This document shows positions 752 through 18,828 of a DNA stretch of 19,051 nucleotides, in pieces. The stretch is taken from NCBI GenBank assembly GCA_965612795.1, contig CBFDTI010000021.1:1-19051 (forward strand), given 5' to 3'. Numbering within the stretch: the first letter of the stretch is position 1; each line of letters opens with the position of its first letter. A program made the position numbers and the translations under genes. Below the pieces are notes generated by a model. It worked only from the letters and a program-made list of their open reading frames with translations, ran no database searches and had not been told where the DNA came from. Source of the DNA: an uncultured bacterium. Its GTDB lineage: Bacteria > Hydrothermota > UBA3073 > NMUJ01.

Positions 752-804
752 GCTTTTTAAAGTATAGTGTGGATCGATTAACTGGCCACCTTACATGTGA
801 ATAT

Positions 805-832
805 TTGACCAACCCATGTTATGAAGTATTTT
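805..832 (+). promoter_or_regulatory. Putative sigma70 promoter of the transglutaminase-tatC operon (probably leaderless)
   Basis: TTGACC (805-810), 16 nt, TATTTT (827-832), 6 nt, ATG 839; no SD sequence. Confidence 0.5.
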
Positions 833-838
833 TATGAG

Positions 839-2113: not shown

Positions 2114-2125
2114 GAAGTAGGAGGG

Positions 2126-3116: not shown

Positions 3117-3937
3117 TATACAGTATGACAGGATTTGGAGAAGTAGAGGATGAGCTGTTCCACATCCGTATAAAAAGTGTGAACCATAGGTTTATGAACC
3201 TATCGTTAAGGTTATCGCCAGCTATCGAGTCTTACGAGGTACGTATACGTAAGCTTATACAGGAGAAGCTACAACGTGGTGCGATAACGGTATCTATTAA
3301 GTTCAAAGAGGAACGGTGGGTACTGGATGGGAGGAAATTGCAGTCATTTAATGAGTTTCTATCTCAAGTGAGGGAAAAGTTAGGATTATCCGGTGAGCTT
3401 AAACTCGAACATTTTCTACCGTATCTCACTGAGTTCACATCACCTATGCGGGTGGAACGCAATTTATGGCCACAACTACGTAAAAGTTTAAATCGTGCCT
3501 TACGTAAGGTATGTGCTATGCAGAAAAAAGAGGGCATGGCAATATATGAACGGGTGATGGCTGAAATACAGAGGCTACGCGATATGCTTGATGAAGTACG
3601 TAAACAAGCTTCGGTACGGAACGAAGCCATAAAGCGTCGTATTAGTACGGCTTTGGGGACACATGGTGATGAGATATTGAACAATGAATACTTTTTGAGT
3701 GAAAAATATACGGTCGATGAGGAGATAAATAGGTTTGCATCGCATGTGGACGAACTTGAACGTACACTTAACGAAGGTGGTTTATGTGGCAAAAAGGCGC
3801 TATTCTTGTTGCAGGAGATGCAACGCGAACTTAATACTCTGGGAGCAAAGGCCAAGGACGATAAATTGGTACATCTTGTGGTGGATCTTAAGCTTATTGT
3901 TGAAAGTATGCATGAGGAGCTCGAAAATATCAAGTGA
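3113..3937 (+). CDS. yicC: YicC/YloC family endoribonuclease
   Basis: SMTGFG, IKSVNHRF, EEINRFASH, GKKALFLLQEMQRELNTLGAK. ATGA overlap with dtd; conserved position upstream of gmk. Confidence 0.93.
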   Translation: MIYSMTGFGEVEDELFHIRIKSVNHRFMNLSLRLSPAIESYEVRIRKLIQEKLQRGAITVSIKFKEERWVLDGRKLQSFNEFLSQVREKLGLSGELKLEHFLPYLTEFTSPMRVERNLWPQLRKSLNRALRKVCAMQKKEGMAIYERVMAEIQRLRDMLDEVRKQASVRNEAIKRRISTALGTHGDEILNNEYFLSEKYTVDEEINRFASHVDELERTLNEGGLCGKKALFLLQEMQRELNTLGAKAKDDKLVHLVVDLKLIVESMHEELENIK

Positions 3938-4533
3938 TGCGAATAGAATTTATACCTTTCCCTATTATAGTATCGGCACCATCAGGTACAGGTAAGACCA
4001 CAGTTATCAAAAAAGTGGTGGAACGTCTCCCCTATGTGGAGAGAGTTGCCACCCTCACAACGCGACCACGACGTAAAGGTGAAATATCGGGTAAGGATTA
4101 CAAGTTTGTCAGTGAACAGGAATTTTGGGATTGGGTCAACACCGGCAACGTTTACGAATACGCTACCGTATATGGGTATCACTATGCTACACCGAAACCG
4201 GATGTCGAACGAATACTGGATGAAGGTAAATACCCGATAATGGCGCTCGATATACAGGGGGTGAAATCTATGCGTAAGATATTTCCGGATGCATTGTACA
4301 TATTCCTTATACCACCATCGTGGGAGGAATGGCGACGTAGGTTGATGATGCGAGGTGCAGAGAATATCGACAAACGTATGGCAGCCGCTAAGGAAGAGAT
4401 TGATGAATGGCGTATGTTTGATTATGTGGTGGTCAACGACGAGCTGGAAGCTACGGTTGAACTTGTGACCAAGATTATTGACGTCGAACGTTACAATATT
4501 AAACATATAAAGGTGAACTACGCCGCCCTATAA
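3934..4533 (+). CDS. gmk: Guanylate kinase
   Basis: SAPSGTGKTT P-loop, TTRPRRKGEISGKDYKF, EYATVYGYHYAT, DIQG, FDYVVVNDEL. Start GTG 3934 or ATG 3937, overlapping the yicC stop. Confidence 0.96.
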   Translation: MMRIEFIPFPIIVSAPSGTGKTTVIKKVVERLPYVERVATLTTRPRRKGEISGKDYKFVSEQEFWDWVNTGNVYEYATVYGYHYATPKPDVERILDEGKYPIMALDIQGVKSMRKIFPDALYIFLIPPSWEEWRRRLMMRGAENIDKRMAAAKEEIDEWRMFDYVVVNDELEATVELVTKIIDVERYNIKHIKVNYAAL

Positions 4534-4549
4534 TCCACAAGGAGGTGAA

Positions 4550-6706
4550 ATGTGGTGGATCTTGTTATTGATACTCAATACAGGTGTTGTGGGAGTGCAT
4601 GCTGATGAGTTTGAACTCGAAGCTCGCATAGCCAGCGTCCCCATAAGGATTGATGGTATACTGGAAGATGTGTGGTACACAGCGGATACGGTGAAACAGT
4701 TTACACAATTTTCACCTCATTATGGTGAACAGCCAGCCGAATCCACGTATGTGTTTGTACTCTATGATAAAGATAATCTTTACGTGGCATTTGTAGGGTT
4801 TGTAGCTGAACGTGATGTATGGGCTAACCTCGGTGGTGCTGAGGATTACGTTAGTTTCTACATAGATACGTTCCTCGATCGCACAACTGCATATGGGTTC
4901 GGTGTAGGTGCGAGCGGATCGCACGGTGATGAACTCATATTGAATGATGGACGTTCGGAGGATGAATCCTGGGATGGTGTCTGGTATTGTGCATCGAAAG
5001 TATACCCGGATAGGTTTGTTGTCGAAATTAAGGTACCGTTTAAATCTATAAGATATAAACGTGGGCTCACTGAGTGGGGGATAAATTTCTACCGCCGTAT
5101 ACCGGCAGTTAACCAAACCCTATACTGGAAGCTACCGGACGAAAGGGAAGGCTTACGGGTGTCGAAGTTCGGTATACTTAAAGGCATAAACCCAGGTGTA
5201 GCGGGTCGCAATATGGAGGTATATCCTATAGGATTTGTACGCTCCGAGCACTATACAGATACATCCTATATATGGCCAGACATGGGGGTTAATTTCAACT
5301 GGAGTATTACACCTGAGTTGAGGTTATCGCTCACGTATAATCCAGACTTTGCACAGATAGAAGCGGATCCGTTTTCGCTGAACCTATCACGTTATGAACT
5401 GTACCTTAAAGAGAGGCGTCCGTTCTTCCTCGAAGGTACGGAAATATTCCAACCTGCCAGCTTTGGTAGGCAGATGGGGTTCTATCACCCTATACAGGTA
5501 TTTTACTCCAGGCGTATAGGTAAAAAGCTACCGGGAGGTGTGGAAGTACCTATAAAATTGGGAGTGAAGCTCACCGGCAAAGGAACAGATTGGCAAACCG
5601 GTTTATTGTACGTGTATACGGATTCAGCCTACAGTGAAGGTGTAGGTGAACCCCCTTATCACTGGTCAGTGTTGCGATACAAGCATCAGATGCTGGGTAA
5701 TTCAGAAATTGGTTTTTTAGCTGTTGCTAAGAGTAGGAAGTTTACATCGCTACCTACGTATGCGATGGGTATAGACTTGGGGTTGAGGAACCCTTCATTG
5801 CAGTTCGTATGTCAAGCAGTTACAACCAAAAATGATACACTTATAGGGTATGCGTTTAACTCTGGTATCTATGGATTTTATGGGGATTATATGGTTATAG
5901 GGCGTGCACAGTCCATAGGTGATAAGTTTGATATCTCCGAGGTCGGTTATTACCGTGAACTGCCGGGCACCCAGATGGTATGGATTATCGGTGGACCGAT
6001 GAAGTTGTTACCCAAAGGTGGAATAAAGATGTCATATGTACTGGTAGGTGGTGGTATATCAAAATACAAGGAACTACCCCGCTCGTACTTTGGAGCGTTA
6101 TGTTTTGGCATGAATTTACGACCTACCGGCGGGTTTAATATAGAGGTCGATGGTGGTAAGGTACACGAGGAAATTCGCATAACCACAGATACAGGTAGCA
6201 TTTACACGGATACGTCGTATTTCACGTGGGGTGCCAATTTCAATTACTGGTCGGGTCCAAAGGGTAAGATCAGCTACTACGGAGGGTTCAACCTCAGCCG
6301 TTCATGGATATGGGGGCTTGAGTGGTTAAGCTATCAGTTGGCAATATGGTGTGGTGTGGAATACTCCATCACACCACGGGTAAGCTTCAGCATACATCCG
6401 GACGTTTCCGTATATTTTACACCCGACAATAAATTGCATCTGGTATTTGCACATATGGAGCCACGTTTGGGTATACACTTTAACCCATATCTGCAATTAG
6501 CGTTACGACCCGATCTCGCCATACAATGGGAGGGTGCCACCCGCAGTATACCATCGTTGAGATTGGGTTACTTGTTGTCTTGGGAAATAGCACCAAAAAG
6601 CTACCTGTATGTGGTTATGAATGATGAATGGTACGAAGCTGATGGTCGGTTGCATGCGGTATCTACAGTTAGTGCGATCAAACTCAAGTGGTTACAACTC
6701 TTATAG
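4550..6706 (+). CDS. CBM9-like (DOMON-type) / DUF5916 domain protein, probable outer-membrane protein
   Basis: N-terminal IDGILEDVW...YDKDNLYVAF...SWDGVW...EIKVPFKSIRY...WGINF; middle NPDFAQIEAD, ERRPFFLEG, FYSRRIG; aromatic/Gly-rich beta-strand C-terminal half. SD AAGGAGGTGA at 4539-4548. Confidence 0.82.
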   Translation: MWWILLLILNTGVVGVHADEFELEARIASVPIRIDGILEDVWYTADTVKQFTQFSPHYGEQPAESTYVFVLYDKDNLYVAFVGFVAERDVWANLGGAEDYVSFYIDTFLDRTTAYGFGVGASGSHGDELILNDGRSEDESWDGVWYCASKVYPDRFVVEIKVPFKSIRYKRGLTEWGINFYRRIPAVNQTLYWKLPDEREGLRVSKFGILKGINPGVAGRNMEVYPIGFVRSEHYTDTSYIWPDMGVNFNWSITPELRLSLTYNPDFAQIEADPFSLNLSRYELYLKERRPFFLEGTEIFQPASFGRQMGFYHPIQVFYSRRIGKKLPGGVEVPIKLGVKLTGKGTDWQTGLLYVYTDSAYSEGVGEPPYHWSVLRYKHQMLGNSEIGFLAVAKSRKFTSLPTYAMGIDLGLRNPSLQFVCQAVTTKNDTLIGYAFNSGIYGFYGDYMVIGRAQSIGDKFDISEVGYYRELPGTQMVWIIGGPMKLLPKGGIKMSYVLVGGGISKYKELPRSYFGALCFGMNLRPTGGFNIEVDGGKVHEEIRITTDTGSIYTDTSYFTWGANFNYWSGPKGKISYYGGFNLSRSWIWGLEWLSYQLAIWCGVEYSITPRVSFSIHPDVSVYFTPDNKLHLVFAHMEPRLGIHFNPYLQLALRPDLAIQWEGATRSIPSLRLGYLLSWEIAPKSYLYVVMNDEWYEADGRLHAVSTVSAIKLKWLQLL

Positions 6707-6712
6707 AACTAT

Positions 6713-7405
6713 ATGGATGAGAAGACATTTTGGGAACATCTGGAGGAGTTACGTCGTTATGTTATATGGATATTGGTATGGTTTGGTGTAGCTTTTATAC
6801 TGGCGTATCAATTAGCACCTAAGCTACTCAATGTAATAGCAAGGGATACCACGTTGTATTTTTTTGCACCTTGGGAGCCATTCCTTGTACGGTTACGTAT
6901 AGGGGTATGGGTAGCGGTATATCTTACGTTACCATTTATTGCGTATCAGGGGTTTAGGTTCTTGAAGCCTGGACTTAAATCACACGAGTTACGTATGTTA
7001 CGTGTGGTTTTGGGCGTAGCGATACCTATAGTGTTTGGTAGTGTGTTGATCGCTTATTTCTACCTCATACCAGTGATATGGAAGGTATTGCTCAACTTTG
7101 CAGCTGGTCAGATGCTACCTGTTATTAATGTATCACACTATCTCACGTTCTTCATATGGTTAACCATAGCGTCGGGTGTGTTGATACTATTCCCCATATG
7201 TATTGTACTATCTGTGGAGTTTGGTGTTGTACCGCCAGACTTTTATTTAAGTTCATGGCGGTATGTGATTGTCACAATATTTATAATATCGGCATTACTT
7301 ACACCACCGGATATATTTACGCAGTTATTGATGGCGATACCGTTTGTGGGGTTATATCTTATTGCATTAGCTATTATCAAAAAGCATTATAGGGAAGCTT
7401 TATGA
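6713..7405 (+). CDS. tatC: Twin-arginine translocase subunit TatC
   Basis: FWEHLEELR, FLKPGL, ALLTPPDIFTQLLMAIP; about six hydrophobic segments. Confidence 0.95.
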   Translation: MDEKTFWEHLEELRRYVIWILVWFGVAFILAYQLAPKLLNVIARDTTLYFFAPWEPFLVRLRIGVWVAVYLTLPFIAYQGFRFLKPGLKSHELRMLRVVLGVAIPIVFGSVLIAYFYLIPVIWKVLLNFAAGQMLPVINVSHYLTFFIWLTIASGVLILFPICIVLSVEFGVVPPDFYLSSWRYVIVTIFIISALLTPPDIFTQLLMAIPFVGLYLIALAIIKKHYREAL

Positions 7406-7438
7406 TGGATGGCACTCACGACAGTGGATGCTTGTAAC

Positions 7439-8185
7439 CTATCTCCTGCGGGTTAATAGTTTCATAATATCAGTTAAAACATCACCCGCTTTACCTTGTA
7501 GAAAGATATCTGCGTGTGGAGTGATGGCTGAAGGTTCTATATTTACTTCGATAACTTTACCACCGTGTTGCTTTACTATCAATGGTACATATGCGGCTGG
7601 ATAGACCACACCGGAGGTACCCACCACCAGCACAACGTCCGCAGTACGTGCAAACTCAAACGCCTGTGTGAGTGCAGTTTCAGGTAAAGGTTCGCCGAAC
7701 CATACGACTGCGGGCCGCATGAGTGCACCACATTCGCAGTAAGGTAGATCGGACCAGTTTTCACCCTCATATTCGTAGATGCAGTTGTCACAAGAGGTAC
7801 ACTTTGTGAAGAAGATGTTACCGTGAAGTTCGACCAGCTTCTTATTGCCAGCAACCCTATGTAAGCCATCTACGTTTTGGGTTACAAGTAAAAAGGTAGA
7901 CTTTATACGTTCGAGTTCCGCTATCGCTATATGTGCGGGATTGGGGTTGGCTTTCCTTATGAGTGTCCTACGGTATCTATACCAATCCCATACTACACGT
8001 GGAGCTTTACGGAAGGCGTCTGGGGTGGCAAGCTCCTCAGGTCTATATCTTTGCCATAACCCATCCTTACCTCGAAATACGGGTATACCGCTTTCGTGTG
8101 ATACACCAGCACCGGTGAACACCAATAGGTGGTTTGCATCTGCTATGAGGTTGGTGGCTTGGATAAATTTATCGGCCTGTTGCAT
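7439..8185 (-). CDS. cobB: NAD-dependent protein deacylase (sirtuin, class III-like)
   Basis: TGAGVSHESGIPVFRG, TQNVDGLH, ELHGN, CxxC...CxC zinc site, RPAVVWFGE, GTSGVVYPAA; YxxR (WYRYR) motif associated with desuccinylase activity. Confidence 0.96.
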   Translation of the reverse strand: MQQADKFIQATNLIADANHLLVFTGAGVSHESGIPVFRGKDGLWQRYRPEELATPDAFRKAPRVVWDWYRYRRTLIRKANPNPAHIAIAELERIKSTFLLVTQNVDGLHRVAGNKKLVELHGNIFFTKCTSCDNCIYEYEGENWSDLPYCECGALMRPAVVWFGEPLPETALTQAFEFARTADVVLVVGTSGVVYPAAYVPLIVKQHGGKVIEVNIEPSAITPHADIFLQGKAGDVLTDIMKLLTRRR

Positions 8186-8194
8186 GGATGGTGG

Positions 8195-8917
8195 TCACTT
8201 GTGTTTGATGGCGTTTGCGAATTCAGCTGTTAAAGTATGATCTTCTTGTAGCTTTTGGCCGATGACAATGAAATTGGCACCCGCTACCACCTTATCATGA
8301 GCGTCGTGGGGTGATTTGATACCACCACCAACGATCAGTGGCAACTGTACGTATTGCTTGATACCACGGATGAGCTCGGTAGGTGGCGAGAGTTTGGCAC
8401 CACTACCGGCTTCGAGATATAGGAGTTTAAACCCAAGATACTGTGCAGCTAATGCGTAATATTGGGCAAGCTTCACCTTATCACGTGGTATCGGTAGGGT
8501 ATGTGTTACGTAATGTACGGAGGTCATCGTACCACCTTCCACCAACAGATACGCAAGCGGTATAGCTTCAAGCTTGTATCGATAGACGAGTGGTGCCATC
8601 TTAACTTGCTCCTCTATAAGATACATGGGATTGTTACCGGTTAGAAGCGATGGAAACAGTATTGCATCTGCATGTGGGGTCACTTGTAACGCATTACCGG
8701 GGAAAATGATCAACGGTATGTGTAATTTTTCTTTAACACGACGTGCAAACTCGTGAAAATCATCGATACCGGTGGTGCTACCACCGATTAACACTGCATC
8801 AGCGTGACGATCGAACTCACGCAGGGCGGGTTCGGGTGGAAATGGACCGTCAGGGTCGATTAATACCAAAAAGCCAGCACGCTCTTTTATGATATCAAGT
8901 AAATAGTTGAGTACCAT
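8195..8917 (-). CDS. Geranylgeranylglyceryl phosphate synthase family, group II
   Basis: LIDPD, IGGS, IIFPG, ADAILFPSLL, YLEAGSGA (group II; group I has YLEYSG), IVGGGI. Confidence 0.92.
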   Translation of the reverse strand: MVLNYLLDIIKERAGFLVLIDPDGPFPPEPALREFDRHADAVLIGGSTTGIDDFHEFARRVKEKLHIPLIIFPGNALQVTPHADAILFPSLLTGNNPMYLIEEQVKMAPLVYRYKLEAIPLAYLLVEGGTMTSVHYVTHTLPIPRDKVKLAQYYALAAQYLGFKLLYLEAGSGAKLSPPTELIRGIKQYVQLPLIVGGGIKSPHDAHDKVVAGANFIVIGQKLQEDHTLTAEFANAIKHK

Positions 8918-8948
8918 TGATTAAAATTTTGTGTAAAACAGGTGAAAG

Positions 8949-9749
8949 TCAACCACCGCACGATTGAGGGGTACGGATGATTACGATAGGGGTGCCGATA
9001 CCTATACCCAATATTTCAGCACATGAACTGTTCTTAACACTAACCTCAAGCATATGGAAAGAGTCAAATAATGCGATAATTTCACCGTCTTTCGCCTCAC
9101 AGTACGAGGTGGAAATCTGGGTTATCACTTTACCTGCCACGTGTAGCTCAAACCGTGCATTGCCGACGAAGGATTTGAAAGCATCTTCTGATACATTAGA
9201 GATGAGGTTGCCAAACCTATCCACGTGGATGATCTCACCTATAAGTTTATCACCTATCTGCTTTGGCTGTGGTAACTCAATACGTACGATGGTGTTAAGC
9301 TTGGACCCAAAATCATCAACTGGTATACCTTTCGATAAATGTGCAGCTACCGGTGCGAATATGTCACGGCCATGAAACGTACTTGATACTGGATGTAGAA
9401 AGTACTTATCATTGGTGAGCCAGATTACTCTGGTGATAGAATTGGGGTGAATGAATGAAAATATGCCATTGTCAGGGCCGATGAAATAGTAATCATCAGC
9501 CTCTATAAGGATAGGCTTACGTGTGGTACCTACTCCGGGGTCGACGACTGCAACAAATATGGTACCTTTAGGAAAATATTTATATGAGTGCATAAGCAGT
9601 AAACAAGCTGTACGAACCGCCTGTGGAGCCACTTCATGGGTGATATCAACAATATGGACGTTGGGATTTATGCGTAATATAACGGCTTTCATTACACCGA
9701 CGAAGATATCTTGGTGACCAAAATCCGTAAGCAACGCTATGATACGCAT
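8949..9749 (-). CDS. SAM hydroxide adenosyltransferase (DUF62; chlorinase/fluorinase superfamily)
   Basis: LLTDFG, VVDPGVGTTR, GPDNG, STFHGRDIFAP, DRFGNL. Start moved to ATG 9749 (MRIIALLTDFG); the track's TTG 9782 is part of the -35 box. Confidence 0.93.
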   Translation of the reverse strand: MRIIALLTDFGHQDIFVGVMKAVILRINPNVHIVDITHEVAPQAVRTACLLLMHSYKYFPKGTIFVAVVDPGVGTTRKPILIEADDYYFIGPDNGIFSFIHPNSITRVIWLTNDKYFLHPVSSTFHGRDIFAPVAAHLSKGIPVDDFGSKLNTIVRIELPQPKQIGDKLIGEIIHVDRFGNLISNVSEDAFKSFVGNARFELHVAGKVITQISTSYCEAKDGEIIALFDSFHMLEVSVKNSSCAEILGIGIGTPIVIIRTPQSCGG

Positions 9750-9754
9750 GTGAT

Positions 9755-9782
9755 AGAATAGCTTAGTGTAGAAGGTTGTCAA
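9755..9782 (-). promoter_or_regulatory. Putative sigma70 promoter of DUF62 (leaderless)
   Basis: Minus strand: TTGACA (9782-9777), 16 nt, TATTCT (9760-9755), 5 nt, ATG 9749. Confidence 0.65.
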
Positions 9783-9832
9783 CGTGTCACCCGCAGTAAG
9801 TGGATTATATTAAATTGCAAAAGGAGGTAAAA

Positions 9833-10816
9833 ATGGGTATCCGAGTGATAAATTATTCCGAAAAAGATGTTGAGGCCAGAACTGTTAAATCAATAAAAGA
9901 ATGTATTTCCTACATAGGTAGAGGGGTCACGTGGATCGATGTTAAAGAACCCACACCTACGGTTATACATGAATTAGGGGAATACCTCAACCTACACCAA
10001 CTCGTGGTGAAAGAACTGACCAAACCCCACGGTAGGTCACATTATGAGGACTTTGGGGAGTACCTATTCATTGCTATGATGGTACCAAGCTATGGCAAGC
10101 AGCACGTACATGTGAGCAGGGTTAGCATAATAATGAGTAAGGATTATGTGTTGACCATACAACACCAACCAACCCATATATTGGAGCCTATCGTTGAGCG
10201 GCTAAGCACTACAGGTACACGTATACGTAAGATGGGTACCGATTATCTCCTTTACGTGATAATTGATAGTGTTGTGGCACAGATATTTCCGATTTTGGAA
10301 AGATTAGGCGAACGTATCGAACGAATAGAGGATGAACTGGTCATCAACCCCACTACGAGGACACTCGAAAGAATACATAGGTTACGTAGGGAGTTGCTTG
10401 TAATACGTCGAAACGTGTGGCCACTGAGGGAGATATTATACAGTATGGTGGAAACAGAATCTCCACTCATAAAAGAGGAGACAATACCATACCTACGCAA
10501 TAGTTATGGACATGCGATCGATATACTCGATATAGTTGAAACACAACACGAAACTATGGGTGAAATGTTGGACGTGTACCTATCGAGTGTAAGCAATAGA
10601 ATGAATGAGGTGATAAAGATGCTCACCATCATAGGTACGATATTTATACCGTTGACATTCATAACCGGAATATATGGGATGAACTTCAACACAAGGGTTA
10701 GCCCATGGAATATGCCAGAGCTTAACTGGTATTGGGGATACCCCATCATCATGGGGTTGATGGCAGTGATGGCAGGTGGTATGTTGGTTTACTTCAAACG
10801 CCGTGGTTGGATATAA
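9833..10816 (+). CDS. corA: Magnesium/cobalt transporter CorA
   Basis: TFITGIYGMNF (GMN signature), MPEL, two C-terminal TM helices, basic tail. SD AGGAGGT supports ATG 9833. Confidence 0.96.
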   Translation: MGIRVINYSEKDVEARTVKSIKECISYIGRGVTWIDVKEPTPTVIHELGEYLNLHQLVVKELTKPHGRSHYEDFGEYLFIAMMVPSYGKQHVHVSRVSIIMSKDYVLTIQHQPTHILEPIVERLSTTGTRIRKMGTDYLLYVIIDSVVAQIFPILERLGERIERIEDELVINPTTRTLERIHRLRRELLVIRRNVWPLREILYSMVETESPLIKEETIPYLRNSYGHAIDILDIVETQHETMGEMLDVYLSSVSNRMNEVIKMLTIIGTIFIPLTFITGIYGMNFNTRVSPWNMPELNWYWGYPIIMGLMAVMAGGMLVYFKRRGWI

Positions 10817-11518
10817 TTAGCTTTTTAGCGATTGTAACCATTTAAGTAGTTCAGCGTCTTCCACTGGGGGATGCTGGGTAAGCCACCTGGCTAACCGCCA
10901 TGGACGGGTGGGTGTGGGTTCACCTTTTATGTTTAAGGTGCCGATGACACGCCCTATACGGGGTAGGTCGTACATGCTATCGATCTGGCAGTTATGCTTG
11001 GCAAGCACTGTACGGAACTGCTGGCGTGCCCAGGATTCAAACCTTTGAAGTGTATCAGTAATCTCGTAACGGTTAGCATCGGTCACCTGCCAACGTGGTA
11101 TACGGAAATAGAGGCATACTCCATTACCGGTGATGGCAAGCAAGGGTCGCTTGTAGCTGGAACGTTCAAACCACTCCGCTATGTGGTGGCCAACTTCTAT
11201 CGCATGTGAAAGCTCATCCTCTGTGGCAGGTGTTTCAGGTGCCCGTATTGGGTCGATATCGAGCACTAATATCTGTACAGCAACTATATCGAACATGGTC
11301 GCAGATTTGCGTAGACCAGGTTGACGTTCACGTAGCACAGCGTAAAGATTACGACGGCCTGACCAGTTGCGACATACTTCGATGAACTTATCCTCATCCT
11401 TTACAATCTTGCATATGGGGTATTTGCCACGTTGTAGTAAACGGAGCTCGGTTTCATGCTGATGATCCAATATCTTATAGAAGAAGCGTGCATCAGCTTC
11501 TAAGAATGTGACTGCCAT
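10817..11518 (-). CDS. Hypothetical protein with AEP/RepB'-like primase-domain motifs (stand-alone, divergent)
   Basis: hhhDhDP (VLDIDP, D87/D89), TGNGVCLYF, ID(180)...RIGRVIGTLNIKG, RPWR. Start overlaps the IPCT/DIPPS 3' end by 19 bp; stop abuts the corA stop. Confidence 0.65.
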   Translation of the reverse strand: MAVTFLEADARFFYKILDHQHETELRLLQRGKYPICKIVKDEDKFIEVCRNWSGRRNLYAVLRERQPGLRKSATMFDIVAVQILVLDIDPIRAPETPATEDELSHAIEVGHHIAEWFERSSYKRPLLAITGNGVCLYFRIPRWQVTDANRYEITDTLQRFESWARQQFRTVLAKHNCQIDSMYDLPRIGRVIGTLNIKGEPTPTRPWRLARWLTQHPPVEDAELLKWLQSLKS

Positions 11519-12834
11519 CGTACGGCGATGAGCATCATCTTGATACAGAAATGGGTAAGCCCACCCATTGCGATCAACATCCAGTAAGGTACGAAGAATA
11601 TGCTGCCTAGGAATATCATGAACAGACGTAGGTCACGTTTGGATAGGTAGTTCCAGACATTAAGTGGATACGGCTTATTGTAACGTAGGTGATACTCTTT
11701 ACGTGTGTAGCTGGCAAGTATGAACCCCGTGATGGGTAAAACCGCAAGCAATGGTGCCCACCAGTATGGTTGTAACCGCCAGTATCCGTAGGTGATACCC
11801 AAACATAGGATGAGCTCACCGTAGCGATCAAGTAACGTATCGAACCACCCACCAAAAGGACGTGCTTTATAGAGTAAACGTGCTACTTCGCCATCACAAC
11901 CGTCGAGTATGGAGGCTATCTGTACGAGTATGCCGGCGGCTATCCATAGCCAGGTTGTGGTGGAAGTAAACATAACCGCAGCAATCACCGATAGTAACAA
12001 CACAGATAAGCTGATAAGGTTAGGATGAACCCTACAGCGTGCAAATAAGCGTGATAACTGTAACGATATGGGGCGATTGAGGTGACGTGAGATTATGCCA
12101 TCCTCTTGGGGTTTGGGTAGCTGTCGAAGTAAAATGGTTTCAGCTACCTTGAGGTCGGTAGGTGTGTCGATATCACACCACATGAACCCATGTATAGGGG
12201 AGGCAACTAATTGAGCGGTTTGGATAAGTTGCAACATACCACCCGTTAGTGTATAATCGCCATGCTCAATGGACCTACGTAGTGCGGAGAAGATAGATCG
12301 ATGCAATATGAAAATACCAGTATCGATGGCGTTGAACTCATGTAGGTGTTTACCTATATTAAGTACACGGTTGTTGGGACCGATTTGAAGCTTGGTAGCT
12401 TCATGTAGCTTATCGCCTTTCGCTATATCGGTATCTGCAAGTATATAGGAAGTATTGGGTTGGCATGTGATACGTAAGAATTGTGATAATACTTGGGGGT
12501 CGAAAATATGATCGCCCATCAACAATAGAAAGTAGTCATCCACATGGGGTTCGGCTGCTAAAACTGAGGTGCCGTTACCTGATTCCCAATCAGGGTTGTA
12601 CACAATTTTGAGGTTGAGATGCTCACGGTGGGCGAACTCTTTGAGATATGAAGATATGGCTTCATGGGCGTAACCGACGACTATGATGAACTCATCGATA
12701 CCAGCAGCACGTGCATTGAGTATTATGCGGATGATGAGTGGTATACCAAGTAACGGGATGAGTGGTTTAGGTTTACCTCTGGTGAGCTTGGTAAGCCGTT
12801 CACCCTTACCTGCACATATTATTACGGCTTGCAT
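11500..12834 (-). CDS. Bifunctional inositol-1-phosphate cytidylyltransferase / CDP-alcohol phosphotransferase (IPCT/DIPPS-like)
   Basis: N-terminal NTP transferase (CAGKGERL, PKPL, GNGTS, LMGDH, DTGIF, WCDIDT) fused to DGIISRHLNRPIS and the CDP-AP motif DGCDGEVAR...GGWFDTLLD. Start moved to ATG 12834 (MQAVIICAG). Confidence 0.88.
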   Translation of the reverse strand: MQAVIICAGKGERLTKLTRGKPKPLIPLLGIPLIIRIILNARAAGIDEFIIVVGYAHEAISSYLKEFAHREHLNLKIVYNPDWESGNGTSVLAAEPHVDDYFLLLMGDHIFDPQVLSQFLRITCQPNTSYILADTDIAKGDKLHEATKLQIGPNNRVLNIGKHLHEFNAIDTGIFILHRSIFSALRRSIEHGDYTLTGGMLQLIQTAQLVASPIHGFMWCDIDTPTDLKVAETILLRQLPKPQEDGIISRHLNRPISLQLSRLFARCRVHPNLISLSVLLLSVIAAVMFTSTTTWLWIAAGILVQIASILDGCDGEVARLLYKARPFGGWFDTLLDRYGELILCLGITYGYWRLQPYWWAPLLAVLPITGFILASYTRKEYHLRYNKPYPLNVWNYLSKRDLRLFMIFLGSIFFVPYWMLIAMGGLTHFCIKMMLIAVRWQSHS

Positions 12835-12840
12835 GGAAAT

Positions 12841-12867
12841 AAGATAATCGAGATGGGTAAGTTTCAA
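12841..12867 (-). promoter_or_regulatory. Putative sigma70 promoter of IPCT/DIPPS (leaderless)
   Basis: Minus strand: TTGAAA (12867-12862), 15 nt, TATCTT (12846-12841), 6 nt, ATG 12834. The spacer is short. Confidence 0.45.
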
Positions 12868-12996
12868 GAACCTAAATGATAACAATGTAACGGATAACTT
12901 GATATATTGTAAGTTGCTGTATATTCATAATGTGGTGATAGATAGGTATGAGTTTATAAACGTCAAAAAGTGCTTGTTAATTGACAAGGGGTGGCC

Positions 12997-13893
12997 ATGG
13001 TTGTAAATGTAATGTTGGGGGTCATCCTTGTGTTAGTAGTTCTGGTGTTGTTGATTGTGATATTCAGAAGCAGACGTATCACACCGAGCGAAGTAGAGGC
13101 TGCAATACTTAAGGGCTGGATGGAGTTGAAGCTGGACGAGAAATTGGGCAAAATATCGGAAATAGCAGATAATATCGCGGAGTCACATACGAGGTTGGAG
13201 AATCTATTGCGTGCACCAACGGCACGCGGGACATTTGGTGAGCTGGGGTTAGAGACGATATTGAAAGACCAGCTACCACCTAATATGTATGGTATAAGAG
13301 AGGAGGTGTTCGAAGGTAAACGTCCTGATGCATATATAAAATCGACTGTTGGAATAATATGCATAGACTCGAAGTTCCCGTTGGAAAACTTTCGTAAGAT
13401 GGTTGAAGCCAAGGATGAAGCTACAGAAAAGGAATTTAAGAAAAAGTTTCGTGAGGATGTTAGACGGCATCTCAACAAGATAGCCGCTGACTATGTACGA
13501 CCTGAATTCGGTACTGCGGGGTTTGCATTCGCATACATACCATCGGAAGGCGTACATTACTATCTGTTGACAGAAGAGCTTGATATGATGCGCGAGTTTG
13601 CCACCCGTGGTGTGATAATCACGTCACCACTTACACTGGCACAGAGGATAGAACTCATAAAAGCGGGTGTGGAGGCAAAAAAGTTGTCAGAAGAAGCAGC
13701 TCGCATAAGGAAAGATCTTGTGGTATTAAACAGGATATTCGGTGAAATCGATAGGGATTGGCAAACCTTTTATGGACACCTGCGGAATGCATTCAACAAA
13801 GCAAGGGATATCGACGATAAATACAGTAAGCTGAAAGACGAATTTGAAAGGATCATAAAGAGCACGGTAAGTTGTGATGATACATGGGATTGA
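12997..13893 (+). CDS. rmuC: DNA recombination protein RmuC family
   Basis: N-terminal TM segment, RGTFGELGLE, RPDA, IDSKFPL (PD-(D/E)xK-like), YIPSEG, SPLTL. Start uncertain (12991 GTG, 12997 ATG or 13012 ATG). Confidence 0.9.
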   Translation: MVVNVMLGVILVLVVLVLLIVIFRSRRITPSEVEAAILKGWMELKLDEKLGKISEIADNIAESHTRLENLLRAPTARGTFGELGLETILKDQLPPNMYGIREEVFEGKRPDAYIKSTVGIICIDSKFPLENFRKMVEAKDEATEKEFKKKFREDVRRHLNKIAADYVRPEFGTAGFAFAYIPSEGVHYYLLTEELDMMREFATRGVIITSPLTLAQRIELIKAGVEAKKLSEEAARIRKDLVVLNRIFGEIDRDWQTFYGHLRNAFNKARDIDDKYSKLKDEFERIIKSTVSCDDTWD

Positions 13894-13976
13894 CAAGAGA
13901 TTATCAAAATTAAATTTGATGGGTGGCTGATCATTAAATGAAAAATGGGTAGCGGTACTGAAGGAAGTAAAAACAG

Positions 13977-15971
13977 ATGAGAGAGTTAACCGAGAAGGCG
14001 TCGGTTGGTATCTACCTGGTACAGGATGGTATATTCAAGTATGTAAACCCCAAGTTGACCGAAATATTTGGATATACTGCTGAGGAGTTAATCGACAAGA
14101 AAGGGCCTAAAGAGCTAGTCTTGCCAGAGGATTGGCCACGTGTAGAGGAGAACATTCGTAAGCAGATGTCGGGAGAGGTTGAATCCATTCGCTATGATTT
14201 CAGGGGAATAAAGAAGGACGGTGAAATTGTTTACGTTGAGGTTTATGATACAGCTATAATTTATCGTGGCCGGCCATCTATCGTTGGTATACTGAGGGAT
14301 ATCACACCACAAGTACGTGCGGAGGAGAGGTTAAAACATATTAACGCAGTATTATATGGTATACGGAAAGTTAACCAGCTTATCACAAGGGAGAAAAATC
14401 GCCACCGCCTACTTAAGGGAATCTGTGATGCTCTTGTTGAGACCGGGGGGTACTACCATGTATGGATCGCTCTTATCAATGAATCCGGTAAGCTTGTGAC
14501 GAGTGTCGAGTCGGGATTGGGCAAAACGTTCCAACCATTAAACGAGCAATTGAAACACGGTGTGTTACCTGTCTGTGGTAAGATGGCATTATCGCAAGCT
14601 GGAGTGGTGGCGATCCAGGATCAACGTGCAACATGTGGTGATTGCCCGTTAGTGGAGAAGTATGGCAATAAGGGAACGATGGTCACACGGTTAGAATATG
14701 AGGGGAAGGTTTACGGACTCATGTCTGTGTCCATCCCCACACGTATGGTGATGGATGAAGAGGAGCAGGTGCTGTTTGAAGCAGTAAGTAAAGACATAGC
14801 TTTTGCTCTACATGATATAGAGCTGGATGAAGAGCGTAAACGGGCTGAAAGTGCACTACGTGAAAGTGAGGAACGGTTTCGTACGCTTACTGAGAAAGCG
14901 CTCGTCGGTGTATATATTTTTCAGGATAATAGATTTCTGTATGCTAATCCTGCATTTGCAAAGATTTTTGGCTATAAACCTGAAGAAATAGTAGGTAAGT
15001 TGGGGCCATTGGATTTGACACATCCAGATGACCGCCATATGGTTATTGAAAACATTCGACGTCGGTTGACAGGAGAGATAGAATCTGCGCATTACACGTT
15101 TCGTGGGATTCGCAAGGATGGTAGTATCATCTACTGTGAGGCAATAGGACGGCGGATTGAATATCACGGTCAACCTGCTATTATTGGAACCCTTATGGAT
15201 ATTACTGAACGTAAACGTGCTGAGAGGGAGCTCCAGGATGCATATAGAAGGTTGCAACGTGCTTATGAGGAGCTTAAGGCGCTCGATAAATTAAAAAGAA
15301 ACCTTATCGCCAATGTAAGTCATGAGCTACGTACGCCGTTGACTATTATCAAGAGTGCCCTGGAGCTTGCAATAGAGGAGACAGACCCGGATAAAAGGAA
15401 TAAGTTTTTGGGCATGGCAATGGATGCAGTTGCACGTCAAACGCTGGTTATCGATAACTTAATAGAAGCTGCACGTATGGAGAAAGGGCAACGTGAGTTT
15501 AATATAACGGATGTGGACATAGCTGATGTGATAACACAAGTAAGTGATGAGTTTAAATCCATGGCTATCAAAAATGACATAAAAATAGAGGTAAACGTGA
15601 AACAGAACCTACCAATGGTGAAAGCAGACCAAGACAAGCTACGGTACGCGCTACGTAATCTTATCAGTAATGCGATAAAATTTAACAAACCAGGCGGTAG
15701 TGTCCGGATTACGGCTAGGAAGAAGAAAGATATGGTTGAAGTTTGTGTCAGTGATACAGGGATAGGTATCCCAAAAGAAGAGCAAACGAGAATATTTGAA
15801 CCTTTCTACCAAGTAAATAGCTCGCTCACGAAGCGATACAGTGGTGCTGGGTTGGGATTAGCTATAGTGAAGGAAATCGTCGAGGGGCACGGTGGTAAGA
15901 TAACCGTAAAGAGCGAAGTAGATAAAGGTAGTACGTTTTGCTTTGTGTTGCCGATTAAAGAAAAAGAATAA
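13977..15971 (+). CDS. Cytoplasmic PAS-GAF-PAS sensor histidine kinase
   Basis: Two PAS/PAC units ending in DIT, an intervening GAF, H-box SHELRTPL, N-box NLISNAIKF, G1 DTGIGI, F-box IFEPFYQ, G2 GAGLGL; no TM segment. Confidence 0.95.
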   Translation: MRELTEKASVGIYLVQDGIFKYVNPKLTEIFGYTAEELIDKKGPKELVLPEDWPRVEENIRKQMSGEVESIRYDFRGIKKDGEIVYVEVYDTAIIYRGRPSIVGILRDITPQVRAEERLKHINAVLYGIRKVNQLITREKNRHRLLKGICDALVETGGYYHVWIALINESGKLVTSVESGLGKTFQPLNEQLKHGVLPVCGKMALSQAGVVAIQDQRATCGDCPLVEKYGNKGTMVTRLEYEGKVYGLMSVSIPTRMVMDEEEQVLFEAVSKDIAFALHDIELDEERKRAESALRESEERFRTLTEKALVGVYIFQDNRFLYANPAFAKIFGYKPEEIVGKLGPLDLTHPDDRHMVIENIRRRLTGEIESAHYTFRGIRKDGSIIYCEAIGRRIEYHGQPAIIGTLMDITERKRAERELQDAYRRLQRAYEELKALDKLKRNLIANVSHELRTPLTIIKSALELAIEETDPDKRNKFLGMAMDAVARQTLVIDNLIEAARMEKGQREFNITDVDIADVITQVSDEFKSMAIKNDIKIEVNVKQNLPMVKADQDKLRYALRNLISNAIKFNKPGGSVRITARKKKDMVEVCVSDTGIGIPKEEQTRIFEPFYQVNSSLTKRYSGAGLGLAIVKEIVEGHGGKITVKSEVDKGSTFCFVLPIKEKE

Positions 15972-16348
15972 TGACAAAGATACTGGTGGTTGAGGATGAG
16001 CCCGAGATACGGATTTTGGTAAAAACAATATTAGAGAAAGCGGGTTATTCTGTTGTAGAAGCTGAAGACGGGGAAGCTGCGCTTAGGTTGGTTAATGAAG
16101 AGAAACCTGACTTGGTGTTGCTGGATGTGATGATACCCTGTATCGAGGGATGGGAAGTATGCAGAAAGATAAGGGAGAACGAAGCCACAAAGAGGCTACC
16201 AATAATTATGGTGACAGTTAGGACAACTAAGGAGGATGTACAGCGTAGTGTTGAATGTGGTGCAAATGCACATATTAATAAGCCGTTTGATCAAAAGGAG
16301 CTGTTGGACACTATTAAGAAATTATTAGGTGAAGCTTCCTCCTCTTGA
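15971..16348 (+). CDS. Single-domain response regulator (receiver only)
   Basis: ILVVEDE, PDLVLLDVM (phospho-Asp), IIMVT, KPF; TAATG stop/start overlap with the kinase. Confidence 0.95.
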   Translation: MTKILVVEDEPEIRILVKTILEKAGYSVVEAEDGEAALRLVNEEKPDLVLLDVMIPCIEGWEVCRKIRENEATKRLPIIMVTVRTTKEDVQRSVECGANAHINKPFDQKELLDTIKKLLGEASSS

Positions 16349-16483
16349 GAGATACCTTTCGTTTCTACAGCGAAGGAGATCGTGGAAGCCCATGGTGGAA
16401 CGATATGGGTTGACGGTTCAGATATGTCACATAAATACCATGAACTCATGTTGAACAGTATGCCAGCTACTCGGTATGGGTAA
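16349..16483 (+). pseudogene. Relic of a histidine kinase HATPase C-terminus
   Basis: In frame after the receiver's TGA: EIPFVSTAKEIVEAHGGTIWVDGS...*, matching VKEIVEGHGGKITV of the upstream kinase; no start codon before the motif. Confidence 0.65.
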
Positions 16484-17996
16484 GAGCCACCTAACAAATA
16501 AAAGGGCGAGCGGCATCTTATTACATATCACATGTTTGCCATCACCTTATGGGGTGGGCGATCTTGGACCATGGGCGTATAGGTTTGTGAAGCTACTGCG
16601 GACAGCTAAGCAGAGTGTGTGGCAGATTTTGCCAATTAATCCAACCACCCCCGATAGGGGTAACTCTCCATACAACAGTTTGTCGGCGTTTGCGGGAAAT
16701 ATCTGGTTGATAAGCCCCGACATTATGGTGGAAGAGGGGCTACTTGCGAAAGAGGATATCGAACCGATACCTAAATTTACAGTGAGTAGAGTGGATTATC
16801 CCAAAGTTATCACCTATAAAAGGAAGTTATTTAATAAGGCGTATGAGAGGTTCAAGAAACTACACCTATATGAATCCGAATACGAGGCTTTTTATGAACA
16901 GAATGTGTGGTGGGTGGAGGATTATGCAACCTTTGTGGCATTGAAGGAATATTTCACGGGTAAAAGTTGGAACGAATGGCCATATGAGATAAGGGATAGG
17001 GAGCCAACAGCTTTACAGAGAGTAAGACAACGGCTTAGGGATAGGGTTGAACGTGAGAAGTTTCTTCAATTCCTGTTCTTCAGGCAGTGGTTTGCACTTA
17101 AAAGCTACTGTAATGAAAATGGGATAAGGATTTTTGGTGATATACCGATTTATGTAAGTTACGATAGTGTGGATGTGTGGACAACCCCGGAGATATTTAA
17201 GCTCGGTGACGATAAGCGTCCGTTGTATGTGGCGGGTGTGCCACCGGATTATTTTAGTCCAACCGGTCAGCTCTGGGGCAACCCCGTATATAGGTGGGAC
17301 GTGTTAAAGCAAACCGGTTACGAGTGGTGGATACGTAGGGTAGAACATAACTTGAGGCTGTTCGATATGGTGCGGATCGATCACTTTCGTGGGTTGGTGG
17401 GATATTGGGAAGTGCCAGCAGGTGAAAAGACTGCGGTTAGGGGGCGTTGGGTTAAAGCGGGGGCGGATGATTTCTTTGCTACACTTATGGAGCGGTTTGA
17501 TAGCTTACCGATAGTGGCGGAAGATCTGGGTGTCATAACCGAAGATGTGAGGGAAATTATGGAACGGTTCGAAATACCCGGTATGCGTGTGCTGTTGTTT
17601 GCGTTTGGTGACGATTTCCCGCACGGCCTTTATCTACCACACAATCATATCAGAGGATGTGTTGTGTATACTGGTACACATGATACCAACACTATAAGGG
17701 GATGGTTTGAACACGAGGCTACTCCAGAAGCTAAAGAAAGGTTGTTACGCTATATAGGGCGTAGGGGCTCGGTGGATGAGATACATTGGGAGTTGATACG
17801 GTTGGCGATGCTATCAGTAGCTGAGCTGGTGGTTATACCATTGCAGGATGTGTTGGGATTGGGTAAGGAGGCACGGATGAACCGTCCCGCTACTGCCAAG
17901 GGTAACTGGGAATGGCGGGTTTTGGATGACCAGTTAACCGCAACGAAATGGGTAGAAAAGCTATCGGAGCTCACAGAAACCTATGGTAGAGCGTAA
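16476..17996 (+). CDS. malQ: 4-alpha-glucanotransferase (amylomaltase, GH77)
   Basis: GILLHITCLP, WQILP, SPY, GDIPIYV, GVPPDYFS, GQLWGNP, RIDHFRG, AEDLG, YTGTHD, RMNRP, NWEWR. Confidence 0.97.
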   Translation: MGKSHLTNKRASGILLHITCLPSPYGVGDLGPWAYRFVKLLRTAKQSVWQILPINPTTPDRGNSPYNSLSAFAGNIWLISPDIMVEEGLLAKEDIEPIPKFTVSRVDYPKVITYKRKLFNKAYERFKKLHLYESEYEAFYEQNVWWVEDYATFVALKEYFTGKSWNEWPYEIRDREPTALQRVRQRLRDRVEREKFLQFLFFRQWFALKSYCNENGIRIFGDIPIYVSYDSVDVWTTPEIFKLGDDKRPLYVAGVPPDYFSPTGQLWGNPVYRWDVLKQTGYEWWIRRVEHNLRLFDMVRIDHFRGLVGYWEVPAGEKTAVRGRWVKAGADDFFATLMERFDSLPIVAEDLGVITEDVREIMERFEIPGMRVLLFAFGDDFPHGLYLPHNHIRGCVVYTGTHDTNTIRGWFEHEATPEAKERLLRYIGRRGSVDEIHWELIRLAMLSVAELVVIPLQDVLGLGKEARMNRPATAKGNWEWRVLDDQLTATKWVEKLSELTETYGRA

Positions 17997-18624
17997 GCTG
18001 AGGCAGCATTATCTTAGTGTACGGGATGAGATAAAACGTAGATTGGATGAATTTAAAAAGCTATGGCAAACTGGTGGCGATGATGAGATATTTGCTGAAC
18101 TTGTGTTCTGCATGTTGACACCACAGTCCAAAGCTAAAGTATGCTGGAGGGCGGTAGAGAATCTCATACGTAAGGGATTGTTGATAAAAGGAAGTAAGAG
18201 CCAAATCGCACATGAGCTGGTAGGGGTGCGATTTAACCGCAAGAAGGCTGAGCATATCGTAGGAGCACGTAAACAATTCATGGTGGATGGTAAAGTATCC
18301 ATTAAAGCCAGGATAGCGCAGTTTGATAACCCATTTGATGCAAGGGAATGGTTAGTGCATAACGTAAGGGGTATTGGATACAAGGAGGCGAGCCATTTTC
18401 TGCGAAACATAGGGAGAGGTGAAGAGCTTGCAATACTGGATAGACATATACTGAGAAGCTTGAAAACGTTGAATGTGATAGAAGAGATACCGAGGACGTT
18501 GTCAAAAGGTAAATACTTGGAGATAGAAGCGGAGATGAGAAAATTTGCAGAAAAAATTGATATACCCATGGGGGAGCTCGATCTACTATTATGGTACATG
18601 GGGACAGGTGAGATTTTTAAATGA
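17983..18624 (+). CDS. ogg: 8-oxoguanine DNA glycosylase/AP lyase (OGG2-type N-glycosylase/DNA lyase)
   Basis: ELVFCMLTPQS, HhH GIGYKEASHFLRN (catalytic Lys), AILDRH (Asp), DLLLWY, terminal Lys (GEIFK). Overlaps malQ by 14 bp. Confidence 0.93.
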   Translation: MVERKLRQHYLSVRDEIKRRLDEFKKLWQTGGDDEIFAELVFCMLTPQSKAKVCWRAVENLIRKGLLIKGSKSQIAHELVGVRFNRKKAEHIVGARKQFMVDGKVSIKARIAQFDNPFDAREWLVHNVRGIGYKEASHFLRNIGRGEELAILDRHILRSLKTLNVIEEIPRTLSKGKYLEIEAEMRKFAEKIDIPMGELDLLLWYMGTGEIFK

Positions 18625-18684
18625 TGTCAGGAAATTTGTTTCATCAGAAAAACATTTAAACTGGATGGTTGGACTTTGTGGTCC

Positions 18685-18713
18685 TTGATGGAGAATGAGG
18701 GTTAATCTATACT
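18685..18713 (+). promoter_or_regulatory. Putative sigma70 promoter upstream of sORF-sfsA
   Basis: TTGATG (18685-18690), 17 nt, TATACT (18708-18713). Confidence 0.55.
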
Positions 18714-18759
18714 ATTTTGGGAACAGTAAACAGTCATAAAATAAACATGAGGAGGTAGT

Positions 18760-18828
18760 ATGGGTTATCTGTGGTTAAGCGTTTTGCGAGCAACTTATAA
18801 AAGGAGACTACCGAAAGTAATGCCATGA
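18760..18828 (+). CDS. Small ORF, 22 aa (MGYLWLSVLRATYKRRLPKVMP)
   Basis: AGGAGGT at 18750-18756 before ATG 18760; stop TGA 18826-18828 overlaps the sfsA ATG (ATGA). Confidence 0.5.
   Translation: MGYLWLSVLRATYKRRLPKVMP

Follow-up and report, generated by a model that had tools for sequence, protein, structure and literature searches.

The stretch studied here is a 19,051-nucleotide contig (CBFDTI010000021.1, positions 1 to 19,051; GenBank assembly GCA_965612795.1) of an uncultured bacterium of Hydrothermota, hereafter the window, and its subject is a gene on the reverse strand for a 233-residue protein, P0001, of the AEP (primase-polymerase) superfamily. Our analysis indicates that P0001 is probably a catalytically intact and chromosomally fixed AEP of a PrimPol-PV1-like clade, and that this clade probably came to serve as the polymerase in a LigD-like module for nucleic-acid repair. 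We assign it the part of fill-in or extension polymerase because in its relatives an AEP, a 3'-phosphoesterase and an ATP-dependent ligase are encoded together. An earlier note, made from the letters of the window, had singled out the same gene for its coupling to an IPCT/DIPPS gene and for a substituted His in one primase motif. The gene is as follows.

10817..11518, reverse strand: stand-alone AEP gene encoding P0001, 233 aa (open reading frame and translation, AlphaFold2 model, fold searches, dN/dS)

Results and discussion

The AEP gene and the fold of its product

The AEP gene is a real gene under purifying selection and not a chance frame. Against a 95%-identical copy at locus L002 it shows 12 non-synonymous and 34 synonymous differences, giving a ratio of non-synonymous to synonymous rates (dN/dS) of 0.09, while the ratio is 0.15 for both neighbours, the IPCT/DIPPS and CorA genes. 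A sequence search gave 35 homologues at E<=1e-3, mostly of 231-249 aa and stand-alone; the family is 46-57% identical across several phyla, and an alignment of 33 homologues holds 50 invariant columns. One 231-aa member, cluster P0020, carries from one source the name 'tRNA(Ser,Leu) C12 N-acetylase TAN1', which is unsupported by fold or motifs.

In the AlphaFold2 model, which is of high confidence (pLDDT 93.5, pTM 0.90), P0001 has the AEP catalytic fold, as the earlier note had supposed, and AEPs stand at the top of both structure searches. Foldseek returned 22 PDB matches at E<=1e-3, and the ones listed are all AEPs (S-2L PrimPol, LigD PolDom, RepB', CAPP and PriS). The best match is the AEP domain of cyanophage S-2L PrimPol (6zp9; Foldseek E 3.5e-6), which reaches Z 16.3 over 176 aligned residues with a root-mean-square deviation of 3.1 in VIA, a wide all-against-all structure search. 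In the phage this domain forms the N-terminal part of a longer replication protein; its sequence is only 12-14% identical to that of P0001. RepB' comes second with Z 14.2, followed by CAPP (12.7), PriS (12.3), Prim-PolC (12.1) and LigD Pol (11.3); the 14 chains at Z>=8 are headed by AEPs with Z from 16.3 to 10.2, and unrelated folds begin at about Z 6. By sequence, P0001 found no match in Pfam or NCBIfam (in the latter none at E<=1), searches of PDB sequences with P0001 and with its profile gave chance matches only (E>=0.4), and among PHROGs the only match was phrog_2478, 'DNA polymerase/primase', with E 0.005.

With regard to expression, a scan for simple consensus sites gave nothing promoter-like between the IPCT/DIPPS and AEP genes on the reverse strand, the scan as a whole being not above chance (9 sites versus 6.5 +/- 2.9 in shuffles). 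Two metatranscriptome runs of one sample contain an AEP relative that is 90-95% identical. One contig of 2751 nt from a marine-sediment metatranscriptome library covers window positions 10700-11984 at about 93% identity (89 differences in 1285 bases), running from the end of CorA through the whole AEP gene into IPCT/DIPPS and hence across their junction. Such contigs from an RNA library hint at transcription of the AEP gene and IPCT/DIPPS, with carry-over of DNA possible, and are silent on a single transcript. Close relatives occur also in a DNA run from a hydrothermal-vent metagenome.

Catalytic motifs and the position of Cys135

All of the sequence motifs that the earlier note had read from the open reading frame are present in the translation, and they lie, all on the reverse strand, as follows.

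11249..11266, reverse strand: motif I, VLDIDP, with the putative metal ligands D87 and D89 (both invariant in 33 of 33 aligned homologues)
11105..11131, reverse strand: motif II, TGNGVCLYF, with C135 at the canonical His position (T130, G131, N132 and G133 invariant)
10979..10981, reverse strand: motif III Asp, D180 (invariant in 33 of 33 homologues; Asp, with few exceptions, also across 149 representatives of the wider clade)
10922..10960, reverse strand: motif IV region, RIGRVIGTLNIKG, residues 187-199 (G193, T194, K198 and G199 invariant, R187 nearly so)
10895..10906, reverse strand: RPWR, residues 205-208 (R205, P206 and R208 nearly invariant)

The acidic residues of motif I (hhhDhD/E) and motif III (hD), which are the metal ligands of AEPs, are thus kept in P0001. 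Over the 149 representatives of the wider clade motif I reads D-D, or D-E in 3 rows, and the nearly constant positions are D-x-D, (S/T)GNG, D180, D184, R187, GT, K and G. An Arg stands at the R187 column in nearly all of these representatives, and we take R187 as the conserved motif IV Arg, which lies in the strand that follows motif III; this assignment was made by sequence position downstream of motif III and not by structural superposition. According to the accessible part of Kazlauskas et al. 2018 (PMC5862659), the PrimPol-PV1 supergroup is defined by an invariant motif IV Arg in an 'Rh' motif, whose mutation R231A inactivated PolpTN2.

Motif II of P0001 departs from the AEP pattern sxH, since the nucleotide-binding His is replaced by Cys135. 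The earlier note was right on this replacement, as well as on the retention of D87, D89 and D180, and took it for the sign of an altered nucleotide site. The alignments speak otherwise. Among the 149 representatives the column is mostly Gln with a minority of His, and C, A, Y, N, S and P also occur, so that the His is relaxed throughout the wider clade. The accessible text of the same study already gives a relaxed motif II His as the hallmark of PrimPol-PV1, PolpTN2 and RepB' having Gln there and 'PrimQH' either Gln or His (PMC5862659). Because the column varies both across the wider clade and in the PrimPol-PV1 pattern, Cys135 is unremarkable; it is a clade-specific variant of an already tolerant position, and the sequences give no sign of a new active-site chemistry. 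The Cys itself is kept in at least 90% of the 33 homologues, so its conservation holds in the main, but not throughout: Ala stands there in 2 of the 33 and also in the fusion protein P0041, and within the close clade His is found only at locus L016. Similarly, RPWR, which had been read as a substituted RPHR, is one of several forms in the wider clade, where the third residue is H in most primase-helicases (RPHR being commonest) and RPWR, RPFR and RPYR are all frequent.

Linkage with a mini-ligase, P170 and a 3'-phosphoesterase

The neighbourhoods of P0001 relatives were compared over 15 genome loci with a full-length relative and 52 metagenome loci, 48 of which lie outside the window's lineage. 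In 8 of the 15 genome loci the AEP is stand-alone. In the other 7 (L004, L006, L007, L009, L010, L015 and L016, from Caldisericota, Aminicenantes and a 'Clostridia' metagenome-assembled genome) it is fused to an adenylation domain, about 200 aa long, of an ATP-dependent DNA ligase (PF01068, E 1e-17 to 1e-22), here called the mini-ligase. In 10 more metagenome loci the AEP is likewise directly followed by the mini-ligase, which measures about 190 aa. Ligase motifs I (KxDGxR), III, IIIa, IV and V of the mini-ligase are invariant in 13 of 13 sequences. The protein stops shortly after motif V, a few residues on, and therefore lacks an OB domain. One of the fused AEP-ligase proteins scores weakly on RNA_ligase (PF09414, E 1.9e-5).

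Directly downstream of the fused AEP-ligase gene, in 7 of 7 genome loci, a protein of about 170 aa is encoded, which we call P170 and which is 56-67% identical across phyla. P170 belongs to no Pfam, NCBIfam or PADLOC family. Its model (pLDDT 88.9) has a best VIA match of Z 4.2, no Foldseek match at E<=1e-3 and no named cluster in the Atlas; it occurs in 1543 protein clusters, where the names encountered are all 'hypothetical' or 'uncharacterized', and one source gives Caldisericum exile as the origin of a member. A resemblance to the C-terminal helical part of fungal tRNA ligase, seen in three rows at Z 3.2-3.5, was too weak to be of use. Complex prediction for P0001 with the P170 of its own genome scored 0.01 against a mark of 0.32, which weighs neither way on binding. 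We suggest that P170 may stand in for the missing OB/DNA-binding domain of the mini-ligase, or that it may bind DNA ends. Full-text literature searches, subscription-only papers and supplements aside, turned up no description of the module, whether of a fusion of an AEP with an OB-less ligase or of the 170-aa partner, and PADLOC gave no match for the AEP, the fusion, P170, the mini-ligase or the phosphoesterase.

The third enzyme appears in one stand-alone lineage, where the end of a gene for a 149-aa LigD 3'-phosphoesterase (PF13298, E about 1e-34) overlaps the start codon of the AEP. By tblastn, about 20 loci have this arrangement, and their phosphoesterase shares 80-100% identity with the query. 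Of the 48 metagenome loci outside the window's lineage, 13 have the mini-ligase/P170 pair, or as much of it as the locus covers, on the other strand at a distance of 2-4 kb. Two of the loci (L060:6944-7840 and L049:6435-7301) have, between the phosphoesterase-AEP pair and the mini-ligase/P170 pair, genes for a radical-SAM/DUF1848 protein with a weak spore-photoproduct-lyase score and for an RsmE-type methyltransferase. At two other loci a 166-aa protein made of the PolX palm and thumb lies between the mini-ligase and P170 (L032:965-1465 and L033:967-1461, both on the forward strand). We regard this mini-PolX as an alternative polymerase which occupies the same slot of the module as the AEP. 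At L033 a photolyase-like open reading frame is located just upstream.

Proposed role and likeness to known systems

On these grounds a scheme can be drawn, in which the enzymatic activities, DNA (not RNA) as the substrate and any physical complex are what we infer. A metal bound by D87, D89 and D180 would serve catalysis of the AEP, while R187 and the GTxNxKG strand would hold the incoming nucleotide, and the enzyme would fill in short gaps or lengthen the 3' ends of breaks. A phosphoesterase, in those loci that have one, would trim 3' ends, and the mini-ligase, adenylylated on the Lys of KxDGxR, would seal the nick. The earlier note had offered a repair enzyme as its second option, and this is the one which gains support from the fusions and linkage with a ligase and a 3'-phosphoesterase in relatives, for a presumed activity. 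A wider claim may be attached to this role, and we put its chances at about even: P0001 would belong to a repair system that works without Ku and has so far not been described, in which the logic of LigD was assembled for a second time and independently. It would be found in uncultured and thermophilic phyla (WOR-3, Caldisericota, Aminicenantes, Hydrothermota, TA06 and others) and be made of a primase-polymerase captured from mobile elements, an OB-less mini-ligase, P170 and optionally a 3'-phosphoesterase or a mini PolX.

The systems closest to this scheme are bacterial LigD and the split NHEJ (non-homologous end joining) or LigC-Prim-PolC systems, which have the same trio of AEP polymerase, PF13298 phosphoesterase and ATP-dependent ligase that P0001 relatives have in fused or operonic form; LigD Pol and Prim-PolC are also structural matches of P0001 (Z 11-12). 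Unlike LigD, P0001 has no match to the LigD polymerase model and branches among mobile-element primases, and the module has a ligase without OB domain, P170 as a constant partner and no co-occurrence with Ku. It should be noted that the joint encoding of AEP, ligase and 3'-phosphoesterase is a trait of the relatives; the locus of the window does not show it, its module genes being dispersed.

As for the AEP itself, it shares with PrimPol-PV1 the retention of the acidic motifs I and III, a relaxed motif II His and a conserved motif IV Arg, as the accessible part of the defining study describes that group (PMC5862659), and RepB', the second-best structural match, is a member. This likeness is based on the motif pattern and the match to RepB'. 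Relatives of P0001 are fused to D5-like, DUF3987 and RepA-like (AAA_25) helicases in the way reported, in the same portion of that source, for PrimQH and all3500 (PMC5862659). The group is there called '(nearly) exclusive to MGE', that is, mobile genetic elements, and PrimQH is described as multidomain in all but seven members (PMC5862659). In contrast to published PrimPol-PV1, the clade of P0001 is stand-alone or ligase-fused, lies among housekeeping genes and has Cys at motif II; the published encoding within mobile genetic elements was absent here, as no mobile-element genes were seen in the window or in the related loci scanned.

The wider clade and its origin

A profile search with the family among 1.84 billion representatives retrieved 5650 proteins at E<=1e-3, of which 173 were at E<=1e-30. 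The best 150 of these matches are mostly proteins of 600-1100 aa with the AEP at the N-terminus, and Pfam hits on the 60 best are D5_N with DUF5906, DUF3987, AAA_25 or HerA-like domains, which mobile-element replication proteins use as helicase modules; the two closest long matches carry a DNA ligase domain instead of a helicase. One look-alike cluster of the Atlas shows RepB_primase with a share of 18%.

A quick maximum-likelihood tree was built from 85 AEP domains, namely the window, 8 stand-alone loci, 6 fused loci and the first 70 full-length representatives; L015 was left out for its cut open reading frame, and the root was not inferred. All 9 stand-alone and all 6 ligase-fused loci, together with P0039, P0040 and P0041, form one clade (SH-aLRT 97), which is nested in a larger starred group otherwise made of long primase-helicases. 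L016, the locus with His at motif II, is the first branch of this clade, and the window's AEP pairs with the ligase fusion P0041 at a support of 90. The stand-alone and fused labels need 4 and 3 changes on the tree. From this nesting and the genomic context we infer that the chromosomal repair clade derives from mobile-element primases.

A search of viral contigs with two peptide patterns of the close clade, with which distant phage relatives are not expected to be found, gave no close-clade relative. In the window's class, two 859-aa frames (G258:C2:425069-425713 and G259:C9:99028-99747) have a distant AEP match of E 1e-22 to 1e-27 and are presumably mobile-element primase-helicases of the wider clade. 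One more record, present at L018:5467-6158 and L094:4467-5158, has a LigD-type phosphoesterase gene followed by AEP similarity to residues 176-228 only, and looks like a truncated or decayed copy of the AEP.

Phyletic distribution and the weight of the evidence

Occurrence of the module genes was counted in 272 genomes of the window's phylum. The counts are uncorrected for kinship, hence they are given as nesting and carry no statistical test.

Close AEP form: 8 of 272 genomes, in 6 genera
Mini-ligase: 55 of 272 genomes
P170: 66 of 272 genomes
G000 (the window's genome), contig C44, 3040-3540, reverse strand: P170 gene, 167 aa, between nrdD and acpS (L019/L026)

By hand count, mini-ligase and P170 occur together in 50 genomes, and in about 37 of these their genes are at most 1 kb apart, P170 usually coming after the mini-ligase. 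All 8 holders of the AEP carry the mini-ligase or P170, and 6 of the 8 carry both; the others are G080, with no P170 match, and G000, with no mini-ligase match. A congener, G263, does have the mini-ligase. The sequences on either side of it in G263 match G000 at the extreme ends of contigs C37 and C50, so that the mini-ligase locus of the window's genome falls in an assembly gap.

A number of points weigh against recruitment of P0001 to such a module. In the window's own genome the module genes are dispersed and unlinked, the mini-ligase is absent from the assembly, so that its presence is deduced from the congener, and no phosphoesterase (PF13298) was detected. Among the 8 AEP holders just 2 possess the latter, with one weak partial match besides, and the phosphoesterase-AEP loci, being close relatives of each other, count as one lineage. 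Mini-ligase and P170 are far commoner than the AEP, which means that the module does not need it, and the 8 holders from 6 genera are not independent. At least 4 metagenome loci with full 5-kb flanks (L054, L070, L075 and L086) have no match to mini-ligase or P170; what is more, the genome and metagenome sets of loci partly overlap (L011 and L076, for example, whose contigs are equally long). Finally, DNA and RNA substrates are indistinguishable from sequence.

The same genome encodes Ku, and we considered whether P0001 might instead be the missing polymerase of its own Ku-dependent NHEJ.

G000, contig C1, 99390-101100 (L022: 1471-2238 and 2235-3191): overlapping genes for Ku and an NHEJ-type ligase domain

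Here Ku (TIGR02772, 238 bits at a cut-off of 150) is directly followed by the NHEJ ligase domain (TIGR02779, 254 bits at a cut-off of 227.75), and in the 1.42-Mb G000 a search for the LigD polymerase (TIGR02778) gave nothing at E<=0.01, nor was a phosphoesterase found, which would leave a place for P0001 to fill; a LigB-type ATP-dependent ligase is encoded on contig C28. The phylum speaks against this pairing as a rule. Ku occurs in 7 of the 272 genomes and the close AEP in 8, and the two meet only in the window's genus (G000 and G263), 6 of the 8 AEP holders having no Ku match, while no AEP locus examined has Ku as a neighbour. Ku is not the usual partner of the AEP family, and we think it unlikely that this is what P0001 does; in the window's genus a role with the Ku pair could exist alongside recruitment to the ligase module.

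It may also be asked whether P0001 acts alone, as a repriming or lesion-bypass primase-polymerase or as an RNA-end repair enzyme, with the association with the ligase being secondary. That the AEP is stand-alone in 8 of 15 genome loci and that one AEP-ligase fusion has a weak RNA_ligase score would fit with this, and AEPs derived from mobile elements can do such work: for AgaPP, translesion synthesis, terminal transferase and microhomology-mediated end-joining are reported in the accessible part of PMC11724360. On the other hand, the stand-alone and fused forms are mixed in one clade, the stand-alone holders still have the ligase module elsewhere in the genome, and the zinc-finger or helicase partner typical of replicative and repriming primases is missing. 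A solitary role therefore seems improbable to us.

Genomic context of the window and the IPCT/DIPPS gene

The genes around the AEP gene are the following.

11500..12885, reverse strand: IPCT/DIPPS-like gene, with a 19-bp overlap with the AEP start (NTP_transf_3 and CDP-OH_P_transf domains)
9800..10816, forward strand: CorA gene, convergent, its stop abutting the AEP stop
12991..13893, forward strand: RmuC gene, divergent from the IPCT/DIPPS-AEP pair (Pfam RmuC, 2.1e-39)
16476-17996, forward strand: GH77 4-alpha-glucanotransferase gene

As the stop of CorA abuts the stop of the AEP gene, there is no remnant of a fused domain downstream of the latter. The rest of the window is ordinary chromosome, with a histidine kinase, a response regulator, two DNA glycosylases, TatC, a Sir2 protein and others, and among 18 further open reading frames of the window scanned with Pfam there was neither a helicase nor an integrase nor any other gene of a mobile element. 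The view in the earlier note of a stand-alone AEP 'domesticated' in the chromosome, with no mobile-element gene nearby, is hence supported, and the overlap of its ATG, 19 bp inside the upstream gene, is reproduced. That upstream gene scores 289 bits on the Thermococcales model NF041135, under the cut-off of 580. Its open reading frame as listed starts at TTG, while matches to the family begin from residue 18 (MQAVII...), and the real start is probably the ATG 17 codons downstream.

The earlier note had proposed a possible link to CDP-inositol and compatible-solute metabolism, in which the AEP fold would be repurposed as a nucleotidyl- or phospho-transferase, or as the DIPP phosphatase, acting with IPCT/DIPPS. 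The overlap does suggest co-transcription, the window shows no gene for a DIPP phosphatase, L002 and L041-L044, as copies of 92-100% identity, preserve the arrangement, and contigs from an RNA library bridge the junction, carry-over of DNA being possible. However, those five loci, with an AEP 78-100% identical to that of the window and the same CorA and, where the locus extends that far, RmuC neighbours, are the only ones in which IPCT/DIPPS adjoins the AEP; outside the window's lineage none of 14 genome loci and none of 48 metagenome loci has it there. What the family conserves as partners is a ligase together with a 3'-phosphoesterase. In its metal ligands, motif IV Arg and GTxNxKG strand the AEP does not differ from bona fide primase-helicases, and the inositol-1-phosphate synthase of the genome is on another contig, so that the pathway genes are unclustered anyway. 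Because the neighbourhood is confined to the window's lineage and the synthase lies elsewhere, we take the placement of IPCT/DIPPS as a local accident of gene order, which at most gives co-expression with a heat-stress solute gene, and a role of P0001 in solute synthesis is hardly credible.

The idea of a decaying phage or plasmid primase remnant without present function, to which one might be led by relatives that are overwhelmingly long mobile-element primase-helicases, by look-alike Atlas clusters that are largely viral and by the truncated copy in L018/L094 described above, is very improbable for a full-length gene with all motif residues intact, a dN/dS below that of its neighbours, a family conserved across several phyla and a window free of mobile-element genes. 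The earlier note had itself named such a remnant, whose homologues would all be longer primase-helicases retaining the His and whose linkage would be unique to this genome, as what would speak against its proposal. Half of this is borne out: the linkage with IPCT/DIPPS is indeed confined to one lineage, but the gene is not decaying, and its closest relatives are stand-alone or ligase-fused and carry no helicase.

Another part of the gene order is more widely shared. RmuC divergently adjoins the AEP-ligase gene in the Caldisericum loci L007, L015 and L084, and in these loci as well as in the window's WOR-3 genus RmuC followed by GH77 lies divergently beside the AEP; in the WOR-3 genus IPCT/DIPPS and a two-component pair are inserted into this block of RmuC-GH77 and AEP. 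The RmuC and GH77 of L084 are each 54% identical to those of the window. The block may be an old shared synteny or the result of transfer of the whole block.

Conclusions

The two points which had made the gene striking, namely the coupling to IPCT/DIPPS and the change of His to Cys, are both incidental. What matters is that a branch of AEPs described, in the accessible part of one study, as essentially confined to mobile elements (PMC5862659) has here one clade fixed in chromosomes, which is under purifying selection and is repeatedly fused to or split from a ligase. The partners of this clade are unstudied: a ligase cut down to its nucleotidyltransferase domain, and P170, which has no family and no structural match. 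If the proposed role is true, the LigD-type toolkit of polymerase, end-trimmer and ligase would have been assembled more than once from non-orthologous parts, and the family would offer compact, probably thermostable fill-and-seal enzymes.

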